NCBI GenBank assembly: GCA_964016885.1
Contig: OZ024757.1
Span: 5,704,001-5,768,000 of the forward strand
DNA length: 64,000 nt
Source: Eledone cirrhosa
Taxonomy: Eukaryota
Direction of reading: 5' to 3'
This document shows, piece after piece, positions 2,221-29,505 of this stretch; within the stretch, counting starts at the first letter, position 1, and each line of letters starts with the position of its first letter. The notes beneath the pieces are model-generated. The model did not search any database. It was not told where the DNA came from and saw only the letters and a list, made by a program, of their open reading frames with translations. The position numbers and the translations under genes were made by a program.

Positions 2221-3048
2221 TCTATATATATAAAACTGTGGTTGTCTGTCTGTCTATCGATTTTTGGCACACATCTCCTCTTAGAATCTCTCACGGAATT
2301 GCACCGAAATTGCTATACTTGTACATTGAGCCCTAGCGAAGACATCGGAAAAAAAAATATTTCAAATTGACCCGCCCTATCTGACGAAATCGAATATAAT
2401 GTATCGATTTTTGAGCGTAAGTGATCAGTTATTTCCCTTTGTTCTGTTTACATTGAGCGTCTTACGTAAAAAATTACGCTGGCTTTACGAACAGTTGTCG
2501 AGCCAGCAAAATATTGACCTGCAAAATTCATCAGTTCGAACACTAAGCTTCCGTTTTGCTTCATTTCCATTTAAAAGCATTTTAAAACAATATTTTTACT
2601 TGAAAACAAGTCTATTTAAAGACTACGTAAAACAAGCAAATATTTCGTCGTTAGGCGTGCAGACAGACAGTCGTGCAGAGAGGTGATATAGGCGTGCAGA
2701 CAGACAGTCGTGCAGAGAGGTGATATAGGCGTGCAGACAGACATAACTGATAATTTGGTTACGCTAATGTTTTTCTCTGCGTTGCAGTGTTTACATTTTC
2801 GATCTTTGTTAATAAATAACCAGTGCAGTTTCTATCCCCAACATCCTCTTTTGTTATAACATTCGGGTTATCGTTATGTTTTCTTAACTTCATAAGGCAT
2901 ATTGTTGGTTGAGGGAATATTAATCAAAAACACCACATGCAAGTCTGCACAGTAGACACTACAGTTTTTAAGCCAAGAAAGAAACTTAACATTGTAACTT
3001 TAACACAGCTACTGAGCGACCCCGAGCAACGCCGGGCTTTACTGCTAG
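2221..3048 (+). mobile_element. Non-autonomous Helitron
   Basis: 5' TC, 3' CTAG, subterminal hairpin cccg-agcaacgc-cggg, inserted between A and T. The empty site is present in the paralog at about 29155. Confidence 0.85.
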
Positions 3049-3083
3049 TATATATATATTTTAGTCTTCAAATTTATTATTAT

Positions 3084-3914: not shown

Positions 3915-4469
3915 GTGTGTGTGTGTACCCCTCAGTCCGTTTTTAAAAATACACTCGTTGAACCACGTCATCCCCGTGGCAACACGTGGTTCAAATCATT
4001 CGCAGATTTGCATTTGCTGTGTAAACGCAGATGGTTATCTTCTTCTCCTTTGGTGAACATCCAAGAATTTAACTGCTGTGGTTTACGGATTAATAGGTGA
4101 AATATATTTCTTACTTAAAGAAATATATACAAAGGAGATTAATCATTTTAAAAGGTATCTATATTTGAAGTTCTAGTTAAACTTTAATTAGTTACCTACC
4201 TAGCTATGTGTGCCTACATTCTTTACAAATTATACCCTGTGATTGTTTCATGTATTTATTATATATATATATATCTCAATCTATTTCTAGTTGATATGTA
4301 ATGCTCGGATCTAATCTTTGAGCTTATTCTACGGTGGATATGGTGCATGTCTCTCAGACATGACAACCCTTAATTTTAATTTTGGATATATATACATATA
4401 TATATACATATAACATATGTATATATACAAATATACATATAATATATATATATACATATATATATATGT

Positions 4470-4578
4470 ATGAGGTTGGTGTTAGGAAGGGCATCCGGCT
4501 GTAGAAATCAAGCCAGAATCAGTTCCTGTCCTACCCCTGCAAACAGGGAAAAACGGACGTAAAAGGATGATGATGATG

Positions 4579-4580
<2 letters not shown>
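4470..4580 (+). mobile_element. RTE 3' tail fragment in (TA)n
   Basis: TGTTAGGAAGGGCATCC...GGACGTAAA(GAT)n. Confidence 0.8.
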
Positions 4581-4618
<38 letters not shown>

Positions 4619-4623
<5 letters not shown>

Positions 4624-4958
4624 GATGAAATCAAAAATGCAACTGGAGTCTTATTTTTAAAAAAATATATATATTTATTTGGTTCCTTTACCGGTTTCGC
4701 AGTTCTTCTGCTTTTCAAAATTAGAGTTGAGATGGAGGGTCTGTGGTTTTCCTCACAAGAGAAAAACCACAGACCCTCCATCTCAACTCTACTTTTGAAA
4801 AGCAGAAGAACTGCGAAACCGGTAAAGGAACCAAATAAATATATATATATTTTTTTAAATAAGACTCCAGTTGCATTTTCGATTTCATCTTTTTTTCTTT
4901 ATACTTTCACTCGTGTAGGACACCTCGGTTATTTTTCATTTTGTAAAAAAAACCTCAC

Positions 4959-4965
<7 letters not shown>
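4619..4965. mobile_element. Fold-back Penelope-like mini element (family B) in (TA)n
   Basis: Near-perfect inverted arms of about 130 bp (4619-4750 / 4763-4895) plus a short unique tail, bounded by (TA)n. Each arm has a hammerhead-like motif. Confidence 0.7.
4792..4827 (+). ncRNA. Hammerhead-like motif with U3-A8 core (family B)
   Basis: ctt TTGAAAA gcag-aagaa-ctgc GAAAC CG GTA aag. Confidence 0.55.
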
Positions 4966-4995
<30 letters not shown>

Positions 4996-5307
4996 GGAGG
5001 TGAGTTTTATTGTAGTACAATAAAGCAATGCAGATATCGGATAAGAAGCACTCTACAGTTTGTAGGACTGGAGTATACATAATATATAAGATATGTTGAT
5101 TTAAAACTGCACTATCCACAAGTGTTTTTTAACCTTCATATCATGTCTTCCTATTTTATCTTATGAAAACACAAATATTATTGCATGATGATGTTTGTTT
5201 TTGAAATGCACATAATAAAATACATGGAACTCTTTTAACCATCTTTTGATCTTATATATTATATATATATATAGTTAAAAGAATAGAGGTGTAACACACA
5301 AGTTATT

Positions 5308-5682
5308 ATATATTGGTAAACGGAATAGAAAATGCTGACAAATTGTTCACAGTTGAAAAATGGTTTAATTAGGAATAAAAGAGTATTAGTGATTGTATGG
5401 GTTAGTATTCAGTTGTGGTTTTAAGTTTTTAAGTTTTTACCGGTTGCGCATTTTTAAATGCTTTTCAAAAATAATTTTGAGATAGAGTGTCCGTGTTGAT
5501 CAGAGCAAACAACACGGACACTCTATCTCAAAATTATTTTTGAAAAGCATTTAGGAATGCGCAACCGGTAAAAACTTAAAACCACAACTGAATACTAACC
5601 CATACAATCACTAATACTCTTTTATTCCTAATTAAACCATTTTTCAACTTGAATAATTTGTCAGCATTTTCTATTCCGTTTA

Positions 5683-5690
<8 letters not shown>
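5308..5690. mobile_element. Fold-back Penelope-like mini element (family C)
   Basis: Inverted arms of about 185 bp (5308-5497 / 5511-5690) ending at (TA)n. Confidence 0.7.
5537..5573 (+). ncRNA. Hammerhead-like motif with U3-A8 core and GCAA in place of GAAA (family C)
   Basis: ttt TTGAAAA gcatt-tagg-aatgc GCAAC CG GTA aaa. The same substitutions occur in the opposite arm. Confidence 0.45.
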
Positions 5691-5729
<39 letters not shown>

Positions 5730-5743
<14 letters not shown>

Positions 5744-6399
5744 TCTCATGCATACACACAGATACTCACATTCACATATATATATTTATATAGTAAAGCA
5801 CTTTACTATTAGGATTATATATATCTATATATGTTGCCTTGGCTGCTATTTCTAGGGCTAAAATTAACACCGGAAGTGGACAAGATGAAAAAAGTTAGCT
5901 AAAATTCAGTCTCAACTTTTTAAACAATAGATTTTTTTATGTCAACAAACGGAGAATATTTGGCAAGAAAGATAACTCTTGTCTTACTTAAAGCCGGAAA
6001 TTGAGTTAAAAATTTTGCGGGTCTGCAGTTTATGTAAACCTTCTTATTTGGTCTTGTTAACTGGCATTTGACTGCTATTTCTAGCATATATTAATAGACA
6101 CTTTAGAAATAGCAGCCAAAAGTCAGCTAACAACACTATAGGAAACACCAGAAAGAAGGACTCATGCACACACACACATATATATATATATGTACATGAG
6201 TGTGTGTGTGTGTATATATATATACATGTACACACACACAGACATCTGTGTGTGTGTTTATATATATATATATATATACACACACACGCACAAATATATT
6301 AATATATGTGCGTATATATATATATAATATATGCATGTGTGTATATATGTGTATGTGTACGTATTCATACATACATATATATGTGTATATATATATATA

Positions 6400-6448
<49 letters not shown>

Positions 6449-6464
6449 GTATATACATATACAT

Positions 6465-6498
<34 letters not shown>

Positions 6499-6652
6499 AT
6501 GTATGTATATGTATATGTATATATATATATATATACAGTATATGTGTGTATATGATATATATGTATATGTATATATATATACAGTATATGTATATCTATG
6601 TGTATGTGTGTGTGAATATTTATATACAACCCCCTCCCCCCACACACATATA

Positions 6653-6702
<50 letters not shown>

Positions 6703-7411
6703 CATATATGTATATATATATACTTTATATATATACATATATATGTATATATATATATATACACATATATATGTATGTATGAATACGTACACATACACAT
6801 ATATACACACACATGCATACATACATATATTATATATATATACGCACATATATTAATATATTTGTGCGTGTGTGTGTATATATATATATATATATAGAAA
6901 CGCACACACAGATGTCTGTGTGCGTGTACATGTATATATATATACACACACACACACTCATGTACATATATATATATATGTGTGTGTGTACATGGGTCCT
7001 TCTTTCTGGTGTTTCCTATAGTGTTGTTAGCGGACTTTTGGCTGCTATTTCTAAAGTGTCTATTAATATATGCTAGAAATAGCAGTCAAATGCCAGTTAA
7101 CAGACCAAATAAGAAGGTTTATATAAACTGCAGACCCGCAAAATTTGTAACTCAATTTCCGGCTTTAAGTAAGACAAGAGTTATCTTTCTTGCCAAATAT
7201 TCTCCGTTTCTTGACATAAAAAAATCTATTGTTTAAAAAGTTGAGACTGAATTTTAGCTAACTTTTTTCATCTTGTCCACTTCCGGTTTTAATTTTAGCG
7301 CTAGAAATAGCAGCCAAGGCAACATATATAGATATATATAATCCTAATAGTAAAGTGCTTTACTATATAAATATATATATATGAACGTGTGTATCTGTGT
7401 GTATGCATGAG

Positions 7412-7420
<9 letters not shown>
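5730..7420. repeat. Large inverted duplication (arms about 670 bp, microsatellite spacer)
   Basis: 5730-6395 is the reverse complement of 6750-7420 with scattered substitutions. The mirrored ORFs at 6044-6283 and 6982-7236 confirm it. Confidence 0.9.
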
Positions 7421-7457
<37 letters not shown>

Positions 7458-7460
<3 letters not shown>

Positions 7461-7550
7461 TCATCATCATCATCATTTTACGTCCGCTTTACGGGAACTG
7501 ATTCTGGCTTGATTTCTACAGCTGGATGCCCTTCCTAACACCAACCTCCT
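7458..7550 (-). mobile_element. RTE 3' tail fragment
   Basis: (CAT)n followed by tttctacagctggatgcccttcctaacaccaacc. Confidence 0.8.
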
Positions 7551-7889
7551 ACATATATATATATGTATATATATATATGTTATATGTATATATGTATATA
7601 TATATGTTATATGTATATATGTATATATATATATGTTATATGTATATATATATGTATATATACACATATACACATACATACATATATATATATACATATT
7701 TATATATGTTATATGTATATATATATATATATGTGTGTGAGTGCGTATGTATGTACACATATTTGTATGTATGTGTATATATATGTGTATATATTTGTAT
7801 ATATGTATGTGTGTATGTACCATTAAGTATGTGTGTTGTGTGTGTGTGTGTGTAAGTGGGCGAGGGTGTGAATGTGTTTGTCGACACCT

Positions 7890-9747: not shown

Positions 9748-9825
<78 letters not shown>

Positions 9826-9827
<2 letters not shown>

Positions 9828-9949
9828 GAAGTATTTCCGTCGGAAAGGTACAGGAGGAAAGAGTGCTCTATGTAGGCTACAGAGCTTATTACTGTAGCCT
9901 ACATAGAGCACTCTTTTCTCCTGTACCTTTCCGACGGAAATATTTCATT
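9826..9949. repeat. Fold-back palindrome (about 55-bp arms) abutting (TA)n
   Basis: tatttccgtcggaaaggtacagg...gagtgctctatgtaggctacag / ctgtagcctacatagagcactc...cctgtacctttccgacggaaata. One arm recurs at 1660-1710 and 28570-28620. Confidence 0.8.
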
Positions 9950-10094
9950 TACTCAGCTCCAACCGGGAATGATCGAAGCATATTCTATATTACATATACG
10001 ATTAGCACCTTCCAGCCCGATAAGTTGAGCACTCTACAGTTTCAGGAAATTAACCAACATACACCATGGACGTTTATGAATTGGATTATTCTAT

Positions 10095-10641
10095 CAAAAA
10101 TATACCTACTCCTTCCAACAAATATACCTACTCCTTCCAACAAGATATACCTACTCCTTCCAACAAAATATACCTACTCCTTCCAACAAAATATACCTAC
10201 TCCTTCCAACAAAATAGACCTACTCCTTCCAACAAAATATACCTACTCCTCTACAAAATATACCTACACCTTCCAACAAAATATACCTACTCCTTCCAAC
10301 AAAATATACCTACTCCTTCCAACAAAATATACCTACTCCTTCCAACAAAATATACCTACTCCTTCCAACAAAATATACCTACTCCTTCCAACAAAATATA
10401 CCTACTCCTTCCAACAAAATATACCTACTCCTCTACAAAATATACCTACACCTTCCAACAAAATATACCTACTCCTTCCAACAAAATATACCTACTCCTT
10501 CCAACAAAATATACCTATTCCTTCCAATAAAATATACCTACTCCAACAAAATATACCTACTCCTTCCAACAAAATATACCTACTCCTTCCAACAAAATAT
10601 ACCTATTCCTTCCAACAAAATATACCTACTCCTCTACAAAA
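10095..10641. repeat. 23-bp minisatellite (AAAATATACCTACTCCTTCCAAC)n
   Basis: Direct tandem array of about 23 units. Confidence 0.95.
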
Positions 10642-10814
10642 TTCCTTTTCGCCCGTTTTTTTCAGCCTCACTTTCATATTTCCTAAATTTTGTTTTCAAA
10701 TCCATATTTAATAAAAACACCATGTTATTTATTCCGACGACTGAAGACAAACACATCTGCCTTCAAAAAACCACTGGTAAATGAAATAATTATCTTATGT
10801 TGTTTATTACATAA

Positions 10815-10864
<50 letters not shown>

Positions 10865-10869
<5 letters not shown>

Positions 10870-11370
10870 TAATAAAAACAATGAAATAAAAACAAAGAAC
10901 AATTCCTTATATTAAAAAATTCATCATTTTACGATCGTTTCTGGGATATATATGTGTGTGGTATGTATATCATGTTAAAGATCTATGTAAAAATATTACA
11001 AATTATCAGAGGAAATATACCTTCACATACATGCTATCTTCAGAAATGATGAAGTATGTTTATTGAAAAAAACACCTATCGACTTGACCTCTAACTCTTT
11101 TCCGTTGGTCAATTCAAAACCTGTTCCTAAACAGACTTTTTATATTAATTCTTTGTTTTTTTCAATAAACACATCTCATCATTTCTGAAGACTTCATGTA
11201 TATGTGAAAGTATGTATATCTCCTCTGATAATTTGTAATATTTTAAAATAGATCTTTAACATGATATACATACCACACAAATATATATCCCAGAAAAGAT
11301 TGTAAAATGATGAATTTTTTAATATAAGGAATTGTTCTTTGTTTTTATTTCATTGTTTTTATTAATTTAT
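10865..11370. mobile_element. Fold-back Penelope-like mini element (family D)
   Basis: Inverted arms of about 205 bp (10865-11070 / 11157-11370) starting at (TA)n. Each arm has a hammerhead motif. Confidence 0.7.
10922..11051 (-). ncRNA. Type I hammerhead motif with a 95-nt stem/loop II (family D)
   Basis: Minus strand: catcattt CTGAAGA [95 nt] GAAAC GATC GTA aaatgatg, with a perfect 8-bp stem I. A decayed plus-strand copy lies at 11177-11312. Confidence 0.65.
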
Positions 11371-11551: not shown

Positions 11552-11974
11552 CACATATATATGTCCTTCTTCCTCTTATGTCGTCTATGGCTGATATCTC
11601 TAGCATGTTTATATATATGTCCTTCCTTTTCTCTTGAGCTCCCATTCTCCTCCAAAAGTGTGTGTGTCTGAGTGTGTAACATGCAAACGCTGAAAATATT
11701 TGTAATGATATAAAAACGAAGGACATGCTAGAAAGAGCAGCTAAATCACATAAAATATTTTTAAAAAAAAACGAAGGGCAGATATACATGCTAGAAATAG
11801 CAGTCAAATACCAACAATCAAGACCAAACAAATTGCACACCCGCAACATTTTTGTCTCGACTTTTGCGATTAAGTAAGACAAGAGTTACCTTTCTTGGCA
11901 AAAATCTCGGGTTTTTTACATTTAATTTTCTATTGTTTAAAATATTTTCACTGATTTTAAGCCAAAGTTTTTTA

Positions 11975-11993
11975 ATGGCTGCCACTTCCGGTT
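11975..11993 (+). promoter_or_regulatory. Candidate core-promoter motif pair (YY1-like ATGGC plus ETS CACTTCCGG)
   Basis: ATGGCTGCCACTTCCGGT. The homologous ETS site is retained at about 5870 and 7280, and a similar motif occurs at about 25905. Motif match only. Confidence 0.3.
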
Positions 11994-12067
11994 TGTGTTG
12001 TGCGTCTACAGACAGCAGTAAACCTGCTAGAAATAGCAGTCACAGCAACACACATATATTTATATAT

Positions 12068-21821: not shown

Positions 21822-22310
21822 CATACTTATATTGAAGTAACAGCCGTACTAAGAGTGAGAAATGAAATTTCATGTTTTTCCATTTATCGCTTTAGGTGCG
21901 CCCGGCCAACTAACTCACTCAATATTCAAATTAGGCTGCTCAGCCATTAATATGCATAAGGAAAGTATATACTTTCAGACGTTCAATCAGTTGACAGGAA
22001 GGTATACGGTGTTGATGACAGCTAATAAGCTAGAAACTAGTTCATCGTTCCTTTGTCAGTGTTGAACAAAAGGGCAACGATGGTTGCCGAACACTGTACG
22101 GCTTAATTCGGGCTGTTTGTTTACAAACAAACCGAGCATTATAATAAATATTTAGTAAACCCATACGTACATATATATATATATGTGTGCATGTATGTAT
22201 GTATATACATACTACTGTACGTCTGAATACATATATGTATGTACGTATACATACTTATATTTAAGTATCAGCCGTACTAAGAGTGAGAAATGAAATTTCA
22301 TTTTTTCCAA
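21822..22310 (+). mobile_element. Retrozyme/Penelope-like unit with terminal direct repeats (family A)
   Basis: catacttatatt.aagta.cagccgtactaagagtgagaaatgaaatttcat occurs at both ends, about 428 nt apart, with an internal hammerhead. Homologous to 1740-2117 and 28655-29050. Confidence 0.65.
22007..22047 (+). ncRNA. Minimal hammerhead motif (family A, diverged copy)
   Basis: cggtg TTGATGA c-agct-aata-agct-a GAAAC TA GTT catcg. Stem I pairing is kept despite changes relative to the 1985 copy. Confidence 0.6.
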
Positions 22311-28490: not shown

Positions 28491-28903
28491 TTGTTTGCTT
28501 TTAAGAAACCACTGGTAAATGAAATAATTGCCTTATGTTATTTATTACATAACTATTAAGCTCTGTTACCTACATAGAGCACTCTTTTTTCCTGGACTTT
28601 TCCGACGGAATTACTTCACATATATATATATATATAAACGAAAAAAATGAAACAAAATTTCATTTCCCACTCTTAGTACGGTTGTTACTTAAATATAAGT
28701 ATGTATACGTACATACATATATGTATACAGACGTACAGTAGTATGTATATATATATACATACATGCACACATATATATATATGTACGTATGGATTCACCA
28801 AACATTCATTACAATGCTCGGTGTGTTTGTAAACAAACATCCCGTATTAAGCCGTAGTGTCCAGCAACCATCGTTGCTCGTTTGTTCAACACTGACAAAG
28901 GAA

Positions 28904-28944
28904 CGCTGTACTAATTTCAAGCTTGTTAGCTATCGTCAGCAACG
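28904..28944 (-). ncRNA. Minimal hammerhead motif (family A paralog)
   Basis: As 1985-2025 but GAAAT TA GTA (C>T in stem III). Confidence 0.6.
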
Positions 28945-29505
28945 TATACCTTCCTGCCGATATGCAAATTGGGCTACTCAGCCATTAATATGCATAAGGA
29001 AATTATATACTTTCGGACGTTCAACCATCTGGCAGGAAGGTATGTTGCAATTTGTATATAATAGGGGTTAATTTGAAGCAGAAAATGTTGGGGACCACTT
29101 AAGACAACAAATCGTCCTTTTTATTTTATAACAATTATTATTATTATTATCATATATATATATATTTTAGTCAACTTTGCTCCTCTCCTAAATCTGCTGC
29201 TCTTGAGCCTAATTTACAAATCAATAGAGATTTAACTAGTTTTAGCAAATAATATTTGTTGTTTCATATTTCTTGAAACATTTCTTATAATTGACTGTGA
29301 CTAACAACAATCAGTAAACTATACCATCAATACCCCCCAGTGATACAAACCTGGACAGTGTGGAAGAATTCTCTCAGGCATGGAGAACACTAGGTACCAG
29401 TTACCTTGTGGTCCCAGGAGAGGACAGAATGGTGAAAGGGGGTTACCCTGGAGACAGCAAGTGAGATGTGTTGAAATAGCTTTTAAAACTTGTGGGGCTC
29501 TCACC

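Follow-up and report, generated by a model that had tools for sequence, protein, structure and literature searches.

C13 as the majority state of a hammerhead core position in an abundant repeat family of likely Penelope-like origin

Introduction

Two short palindromes, here called E1 and E2, lie close to each other in the 64,000-nucleotide stretch of DNA analysed in this study (the window), and each of their arms carries a motif that reads as a small hammerhead ribozyme with a UUGAAAA core. In E2, the base at core position 13 is C rather than A. What kind of element are E1 and E2, and did the E2 family need a hammerhead that cuts? The answer we consider probable is that E1 and E2, each a pair of short repeats placed head to head within (TA)n, represent the pseudo-LTR ends of two related families of Penelope-like elements (PLEs) with a minimal, dimer-type U3-A8 hammerhead. 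C13 is the majority state in the E2 family. Insertion probably does not depend on cleavage, which likely allowed this family to multiply with a ribozyme that was weak or dead.

Organization of the two palindromes

The window is animal DNA, apparently from a cephalopod to judge by one short peptide match to a published octopus element, and is rich in repeats, among them remnants of RTE-like reverse transcriptases, clusters of C2H2 zinc fingers, and long (TA)n runs. Self-comparison of the window found the two palindromes at 4610-4903 (E1) and 5307-5692 (E2). The arms of each are arranged head to head, (TA)n is present on both sides of both elements, and extra sequence occurs on one arm only, the right arm in E1 and the left arm in E2. 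Relative to the left arm of E2, the right arm has an 8-nt deletion just 3' of the motif.

Table 1. Features of the E1/E2 region, in window coordinates.
Feature	Position	Strand	Basis or detail
(TA)n run to the left of E1, likely target of insertion	4583..4619	.	sequence
E1 left arm, inverted copy without tail	4620..4752	-	self-comparison, sequence
E1 left motif, U3-A8 core, GAAA, helix I of just 2 bp	4689..4718	-	U3 at 4718
E1 right arm	4761..4899	+	self-comparison, sequence
E1 right motif, U3-A8 core, GAAA, helix I 3 bp	4795..4824	+	U3 at 4795; predicted cut 3' of A17 (4824)
E1 one-sided tail, ~65 nt	4900..4964	+	sequence; loose ends at 4903
(TA)n run, right flank of E1	4965..4992	.	sequence
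Third high-copy element between E1 and E2	4993..5259	.	depth, loose ends at 5091/5092
(TA)n run, left flank of E2	5260..5273	.	sequence
E2 one-sided tail, 33 nt	5274..5306	-	sequence, loose ends, depth
E2 left arm, close to family majority form	5307..5499	-	X4 contig 16
E2 left motif, U3-A8 core, C13 at 5446	5438..5468	-	U3 at 5468
E2 right arm, without tail	5509..5685	+	sequence
E2 right motif, U3-A8 core, C13 at 5562	5540..5570	+	U3 at 5540
(TA)n run, right flank of E2	5686..5728	.	sequence

E1 and E2 match at 73% of positions over 143 nt in the self-comparison. The local alignment score between an arm of E1 and an arm of E2 was 54, and the highest score among 1000 shuffles was 32. The leaders that precede the motifs are identical at 21 of 30 positions, a value reached in 4 of 2000 shuffles. 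The block common to the two elements consists of the leader and the motif, and the sequence further downstream has diverged. The likeness of the tails is weak, being reached by 77 of 2000 shuffles. Judged from these alignments, E1 and E2 are related to each other.

The abundance of the two elements was assessed by aligning public reads and contigs of four runs (X1, X4, X7, and X22, out of 24 listed) to positions 4757-5503, which cover one arm per element. With positions 4757-4864, which include the E1 core, masked, the alignment covered homolog variation in the rest of this region. Both E1 and E2 were found to be high-copy. Other copies of E1 end near 4903 and continue into (TA)n, as seen in 52 contigs of X1 and one of X4. 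Many copies of E2 are without the tail and end at 5307 in (TA)n; this was observed in 782 reads of X22 and in contigs of X1, X4, and X7. The depth over the E2 tail in X22 was 0.48 of that over the adjoining arm. One contig of X1 contains 143 nt past position 5495 that did not align to the E2 arm. Sharp read ends in X22 at 5344, 5367, and 5476 were considered as a fixed 5' boundary and rejected. All of them lie on AATT sites (5341, 5367, and 5473), and they were therefore treated as cut sites of the library.

The third element, which separates E1 from E2, consists of 5091-5250 together with an inverted piece (4993-5092) that is joined in other copies to the far end of 5091-5250. No hammerhead was seen in it. 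It is apparently a 3' end with its own tail, in inverted order, and other copies of it extend upstream of 5091 with common sequence (347 reads).

Hammerhead motifs in the four arms

Read outward from the axis, all four arms present the same order of parts: TTGAAAA, a stem II opening with a G-C pair, G(A/C)AA, the palindrome CCGG, and TA. In full, the motif is TTGAAAA-gcag/ctgc-GAAA-CCGG-TA in E1 and TTGAAAA-gcatt/aatgc-GCAA-CCGG-TA in E2. The 5' core, N3-UGA-N-N8-A with a Watson-Crick pair between positions 3 and 8, is found in 4/4 arms. The 3' core, G12-A13-A14-A15.1, is present in both arms of E1 but absent from E2, where both arms have GCAA. Stem II opens with G10.1-C11.1 and has 4 bp in E1 and 5 bp in E2; between the two, one pair has changed on both sides (G-C versus U-A). 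The stem III palindrome ACCGGT is followed by A (a U-H cut site) in every arm, and its self-duplex in a dimer is predicted at -10.3 kcal/mol. Helix I has 3 bp in three arms, which in E2 are three A-U pairs, and 2 bp in the left arm of E1; it is absent from predicted folds.

How often would such motifs arise by chance? A descriptor that allows C3-G8 or U3-A8, any base at 13, a stem II of at least 4 bp, and a palindromic stem III matched exactly four places in the window, which are the four arms. The same descriptor gave a mean of 0.025 matches and a maximum of one in 200 dinucleotide shuffles. Thus, the two neighboring palindromes with UUGAAAA cores described in an earlier note on this DNA are well supported, as are its similar leaders and, from the alignment of the arms, its related lineage of hammerhead variants. 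Its description of U3-A8 as a compensatory core pair agrees with published work (PMC3088659, PMC4209133). Other details had to be revised. The stem II sequences were said to be different but perfectly paired; the pairing is perfect, but the first three pairs are shared and only one pair differs. The motif was placed 25-30 nt from the fold-back center, whereas U3 lies 38.5 nt (E1) and 36 nt (E2) from it, and ~31-33 nt from the end of the arm pairing.

The leaders have a further property in common. In one frame, the stretches 4770-4798 and 5515-5543 end in SQ-x-YF followed by a TGA inside the core (SQLYF-stop in E1 and SQNYF-stop in E2). As far as the reading frame suggests, the stop codon of a parent frame may lie within the hammerhead, with U3 as the third codon position.

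Searches with general models and in other collections gave little. In Rfam, no hammerhead appeared among the 150 of 329 matches listed, which were hairpin and microsatellite matches below threshold. A pattern scan of metagenomes gave 120 loci, apparently chance matches, with no (TA)n or palindrome context seen; base 13 in these loci was G in 45, A in 41, C in 28, and T in 7. The best metagenome look-alike (L048) sits in apparent coding DNA and was rejected. Tighter motif patterns matched nothing in either prokaryote genomes or viral contigs.

Base 13 across the E2 family

Is C13 a lesion of the copy in the window, or a property of the family? Position 13 of the aligned E2 arm corresponds to 5446. 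In organism B, X4 contig 16, the sole contig there, covers 5307-5487 without a gap, and 5454 is the one letter at which it differs. In organism D, X7 contig 24, the deepest among the contigs listed, covers 5324-5457, and its single other letter is also at 5454. X7 contig 23 from the same organism has 11 other letters, all at sites other than 5446. This contig represents a diverged subfamily, ~90% identical, that has retained C13. In organism A, ~2,290 reads of X22 cover the E2 motif, and 5446 is absent from the 40 variants listed out of 128.

The frequency of the listed variants sets a bound on other bases. For 23 of the 40 the frequency was computed, and each reached at least 24.6% in some run; the other 17 were at ~25% or more by inspection. 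Since the listed variants are all at about a quarter or more, a base other than C at position 13 should be under ~25% in every run. We infer that C13 exceeds ~75% in each run, a figure that rests on the inferred ranking of the variants and leaves room for a minority of A13. The variants outside those listed include one G>T site in X1, two in X7, and several in X22. C13 is therefore the majority state of the E2 family in three organisms, the diverged subfamily included. As a result, C13 is not a lesion of the insertion in the window, and it predates the spread of the family. The earlier note had offered A13C as either a tolerated variant or an inactivation that preceded insertion. The change does predate the insertion, but that wording was too narrow, because C13 predates the amplification of the whole family. 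On the fixation of C13 among homologs, the answer is a majority in the E2 reads and contigs of three organisms, with a minority of A13 possible.

The rest of the motif is also little changed. U3 and A8 of the E2 left arm (5468 and 5463) are absent from the 40 variants listed out of 128. Within the E2 motif, the listed changes all fall in loop II: the one at 5454 and, in 30% of X22 reads, the loss of 1 nt at 5456. At 5454, the left arm of the window is the odd one out, as 97-100% of other copies agree with the right arm. Variable sites in the E2 family number 12 of 151 in the flanks versus 0 of 27 in the stem and core, a difference that is not significant (Fisher p=0.13). Thus, recent spread from one master copy fits as well as selection. 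A hammerhead family with C13 was not found in the literature searched, and C13 is missing from the 56 motifs in Cervera Fig. S3 as well as from all 34 rows in Craig File S2; both tables came from searches that required GAA, and a C13 family may thus already be in print.

Probable origin as Penelope-like insertions

The anatomy of E1 and E2, which the earlier note passed over, is that of PLE insertions: an inverted 5'-truncated copy, a one-sided tail, both types of 3' end recurring in other copies, and a (TA)n target. The ends of PLEs were described by Craig 2021 in the same terms, as an inverted 5'-truncated copy with a 30-40 bp tail at one end and (TA)n targets (PMC8557442). In the window, 0 of 248 frames of at least 55 aa matched a GIY-YIG family in Pfam, and the reverse transcriptase matches lie elsewhere, unlinked to E1 and E2. 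A missing reverse transcriptase and GIY-YIG frame is as expected for truncated copies. The putative membership of E1 and E2 in the PLEs is based on the anatomy and the motif. Non-LTR retrozymes form tandem arrays of a monomer that has a canonical hammerhead, whereas both E1 and E2 are inverted pairs, and the window contains no tandem copy of either.

One model for how such palindromes could arise begins with a PLE protein that would nick the (TA)n target. Reverse transcription would then start at two alternative internal sites, one yielding a tail and the other none. Two short cDNAs, one per nicked strand, would pass the whole hammerhead and extend to 30-45 nt upstream of the motif, and their joining head to head would leave a palindrome with a single tail. 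Alternatively, a single cDNA folding back could give the same picture. Every arm extends across the cut site, which indicates that the templates were uncut RNA. The model draws on the anatomy and on biochemical findings by Frangieh 2024: nicking and extension occur on both strands, the tail is bounded by two start sites of reverse transcription, catalytic mutants insert normally in vitro, and uncut RNA is the main template (PMC11167929).

Predicted folding and cleavage

Could the motifs of E1 and E2 cut? In all four arms, UCAA of the leader and UUGA of the core are predicted to form a hairpin that occupies U3-A6. A single arm folds poorly as a hammerhead, with a helix I of 2-3 pairs and the competing leader hairpin. 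In contrast, helix I of the canonical element at 51245 has 6 bp and continues in a long extension. In transcripts with both arms, the probability of the closing pair of stem II is below 1e-14. There is one sense arm per strand, and hence no dimer can form in cis. The genomic copies of E1 and E2 are therefore predicted by folding to be inert, and read-through RNA would form one long hairpin.

In the E2 core, cleavage is most likely weak or lost, and dispensable to the family, because copying ran past the cut site in all four arms, helix I has only 2-3 bp, and catalytic mutants insert in vitro. A13 belongs to the consensus core of the hammerhead, and its changes reportedly kill cleavage, a result attributed to Ruffner in 1990. 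In a scan of pairwise mutants, C3G/G8C was the sole swap to rescue the U-turn region (PMC9901934), which suggests that U3-A8 is itself likely weak. Of the two fates considered for A13C, a ribozyme that is dead but dispensable is favored over a tolerated change.

Alternative explanations

It is nevertheless conceivable, though unlikely, that C13 is tolerated and perhaps co-adapted, with A8 freeing position 13, and that the motif still cuts as a dimer or with the help of protein. The rest of the E2 core, G10.1-C11.1, the palindromic stem III, and the GUA site are all intact, and the ~90% identical subfamily (X7 contig 23) retains C13. Precedents can be cited as well: a PLE hammerhead of Anolis cuts only with protein added (PMC11167929), core variants of low activity exist in nature (PMC3088659), and a triple change at U3, A8, and C13 goes beyond what the pairwise mutant scan covered (PMC9901934). 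Against this stand the place of A13 in the consensus core, the absence of C13 from the two published tables (both from searches that required GAA), the likely weakness of U3-A8 in that same scan, and a helix I of three A-U pairs in competition with a hairpin. In its strongest form, the E2 family would have a working hammerhead with a triple-changed core, A8 would remove the constraint on A13, the natural active core would fall beyond all search patterns now used, and GCAA types in animal retroelements would have been missed wholesale; this we regard as quite doubtful.

Other explanations deny the motif a role in the elements, or that it is a hammerhead. The palindromes might be non-autonomous fold-back (MITE-like) DNA transposons in TA, with the motif a passenger from a piece of PLE. 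Short, high-copy, near-perfect inverted repeats flanked by TA, with no coding frame in E1 or E2, are what such transposons look like. However, symmetrical fixed termini are not seen; the ends are asymmetric, one arm has a tail, and both end types recur across copies, while a target duplication would be unreadable inside (TA)n. Moreover, the same build surrounds canonical hammerheads elsewhere in the window, and the X1 contig that runs beyond 5495 hints at longer non-palindromic members. A fold-back transposon is thus very improbable. It is harder still to believe that the motif is a chance look-alike under another constraint, such as a frame end with a TGA stop at U4-G5-A6. The two leaders do end alike at TGA, and loose patterns of this kind occur by chance in large collections. 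Yet four matches were found against 0.025 expected, stem II pairing survives a two-sided change and different loop lengths, and the 3' core and stem III past the stop are still shared, in contrast to the diverged sequence downstream. A hammerhead could in any case overlap a stop codon.

Other elements in the window

Several other loci of the window carry hammerheads or palindromes. Elements of the E1/E2 build with canonical cores are seen most clearly at 50551-51414, where there are three canonical CTGAAGA/GAAA-CGCG-TA hammerheads, with C3 at 50746 and 51056 on the minus strand and at 51245 on the plus strand. They lie in two tandem copies and one inverted copy that are 98-100% identical, with (TA)n flanks, a one-sided tail, and a long helix I. 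This is a young PLE-type insertion of the same build as E1 and E2, and a good positive control.

A palindrome at 9823-9951 opens the element at 9823-10820. It is followed by a frame start, MDVYELDYSIKNIPTPSN, which by eye is like the start of Hydra-1_Obim, MDLHNIGYSFKNIPTPSN, and runs into a derived 23-nt tandem array. A degenerate hammerhead near 10742-10780 and (TA)n come next. The locus is likely a collapsed PLE of the Hydra clade, and related 3' ends occur at 1587-1723 and 28496-28636. An older palindrome (83%) at 10864-11370 has CTGAAGA in both arms and decayed 3' cores. By eye, the start of its inverted arm lies ~30 nt upstream of position 3. E1 and E2 are alike in this, and the shared start may mark a preferred 5' end. 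A further hammerhead-bearing repeat family is found at 1737-2029, 21995-22306, and 28642-28956, with CTGACGA...GAAA-CTAG-TA at 2020 (minus strand), U3 together with G8 at 22012 (plus strand), and a decayed stem III near 28910. The palindrome at 44627-44812 contains CTGATCA and GAAACATGT in its right arm and no stem II; it is possibly a degenerate hammerhead.

The remaining observations concern loci of other kinds. A 1.76-kb inverted repeat with a microsatellite center (5698-7458) adjoins E2, and a partial relative is found at 11784-11994. The whole cluster is enclosed by two SINE-like copies in facing orientation, at 4386-4617 and 7424-7634. An uninterrupted frame of 1784 aa occupies 56680-62034 on the minus strand; its Pfam matches (NHL repeat, coiled coil) are sub-threshold only, and it is possibly a large single-exon beta-propeller gene. 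A short GC-rich hairpin at 3015-3050 is followed by CTAG and a TA run, an arrangement that we take to resemble a Helitron 3' end.

Significance and comparison with known systems

U3-A8 minimal hammerheads in PLEs were already known, having been published in 2014. Cervera and De la Pena 2014 counted ~1,300 U3-A8 motifs in Schistosoma mansoni, by way of its Cercyon PLEs, and described pairs of motifs on opposite strands 100-700 bp apart; in Fig. S3 of that work, the PLE-linked motif Schistosoma mansoni (4) has a UUGAAAA core (PMC4209133). Covariation to U3-A8 in nature was reported by Perreault 2011 (PMC3088659). The U3-A8 core and the palindromic layout of E1 and E2 therefore add nothing new, and the one point that appears new is that C13 is the majority state across an abundant repeat family.

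Such a family, spread with a near-invariant core base substituted, is a natural test of whether hammerheads do anything for their PLEs. If C13 is dead, a family was able to multiply in vivo without needing cleavage, an extension of the in vitro result. If C13 cuts, all searches have relied on a core consensus that is too narrow. The former outcome, which we favor, has a parallel in the Naiad elements, which thrive without canonical hammerheads (PMC8557442). Craig 2021 suggests that PLE hammerheads may be parasites of the element.

Among the systems compared, E1 and E2 share with the metazoan PLE hammerheads of PMC4209133 the U3-A8 pair, G10.1-C11.1, a palindromic stem III, a short helix I, pairs on opposite strands, and mostly truncated copies. 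Helix I has 2-6 bp in those motifs, and the 2-3 bp of E1 and E2 make it very weak. Unlike them, E1 and E2 have no extra base between A9 and G10.1 and have the 4-nt palindrome CCGG in stem III, and the E2 family differs by C13 from all 56 representatives, which came from a search that required GAAA. Section 8 of Perreault 2011 names the variants A6C, insertions after A6 and A13, and U15.1-A16.1 (PMC3088659), and A13C is not among them.

The pseudo-LTR insertions of EN+ PLEs (Neptune, Hydra, and Naiad; PMC8557442) resemble E1 and E2 in the inverted truncated copy, the tail at one end, the (TA)n, and the hammerhead near the 3' end, and from octopus the same paper reports Hydra-1_Obim and Naiads with a preference for (TA)n. 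E1 and E2 differ in that their copies are cut down to 130-190 nt and have no frame, and in that the tail of E1 is ~65 nt; in addition, all 34 motifs of the table in PMC8557442 have CTGA and GAA cores. The Poseidon element PAc of Anolis carolinensis (PMC11167929) has a canonical C3-G8 core that cuts with the help of protein and a frame that starts inside the motif, neither of which is shown for E1 or E2. In other respects, PAc is close to them: it too has two 3' ends split by the tail, inserts into AT-rich DNA, and keeps an uncut hammerhead in its copies.
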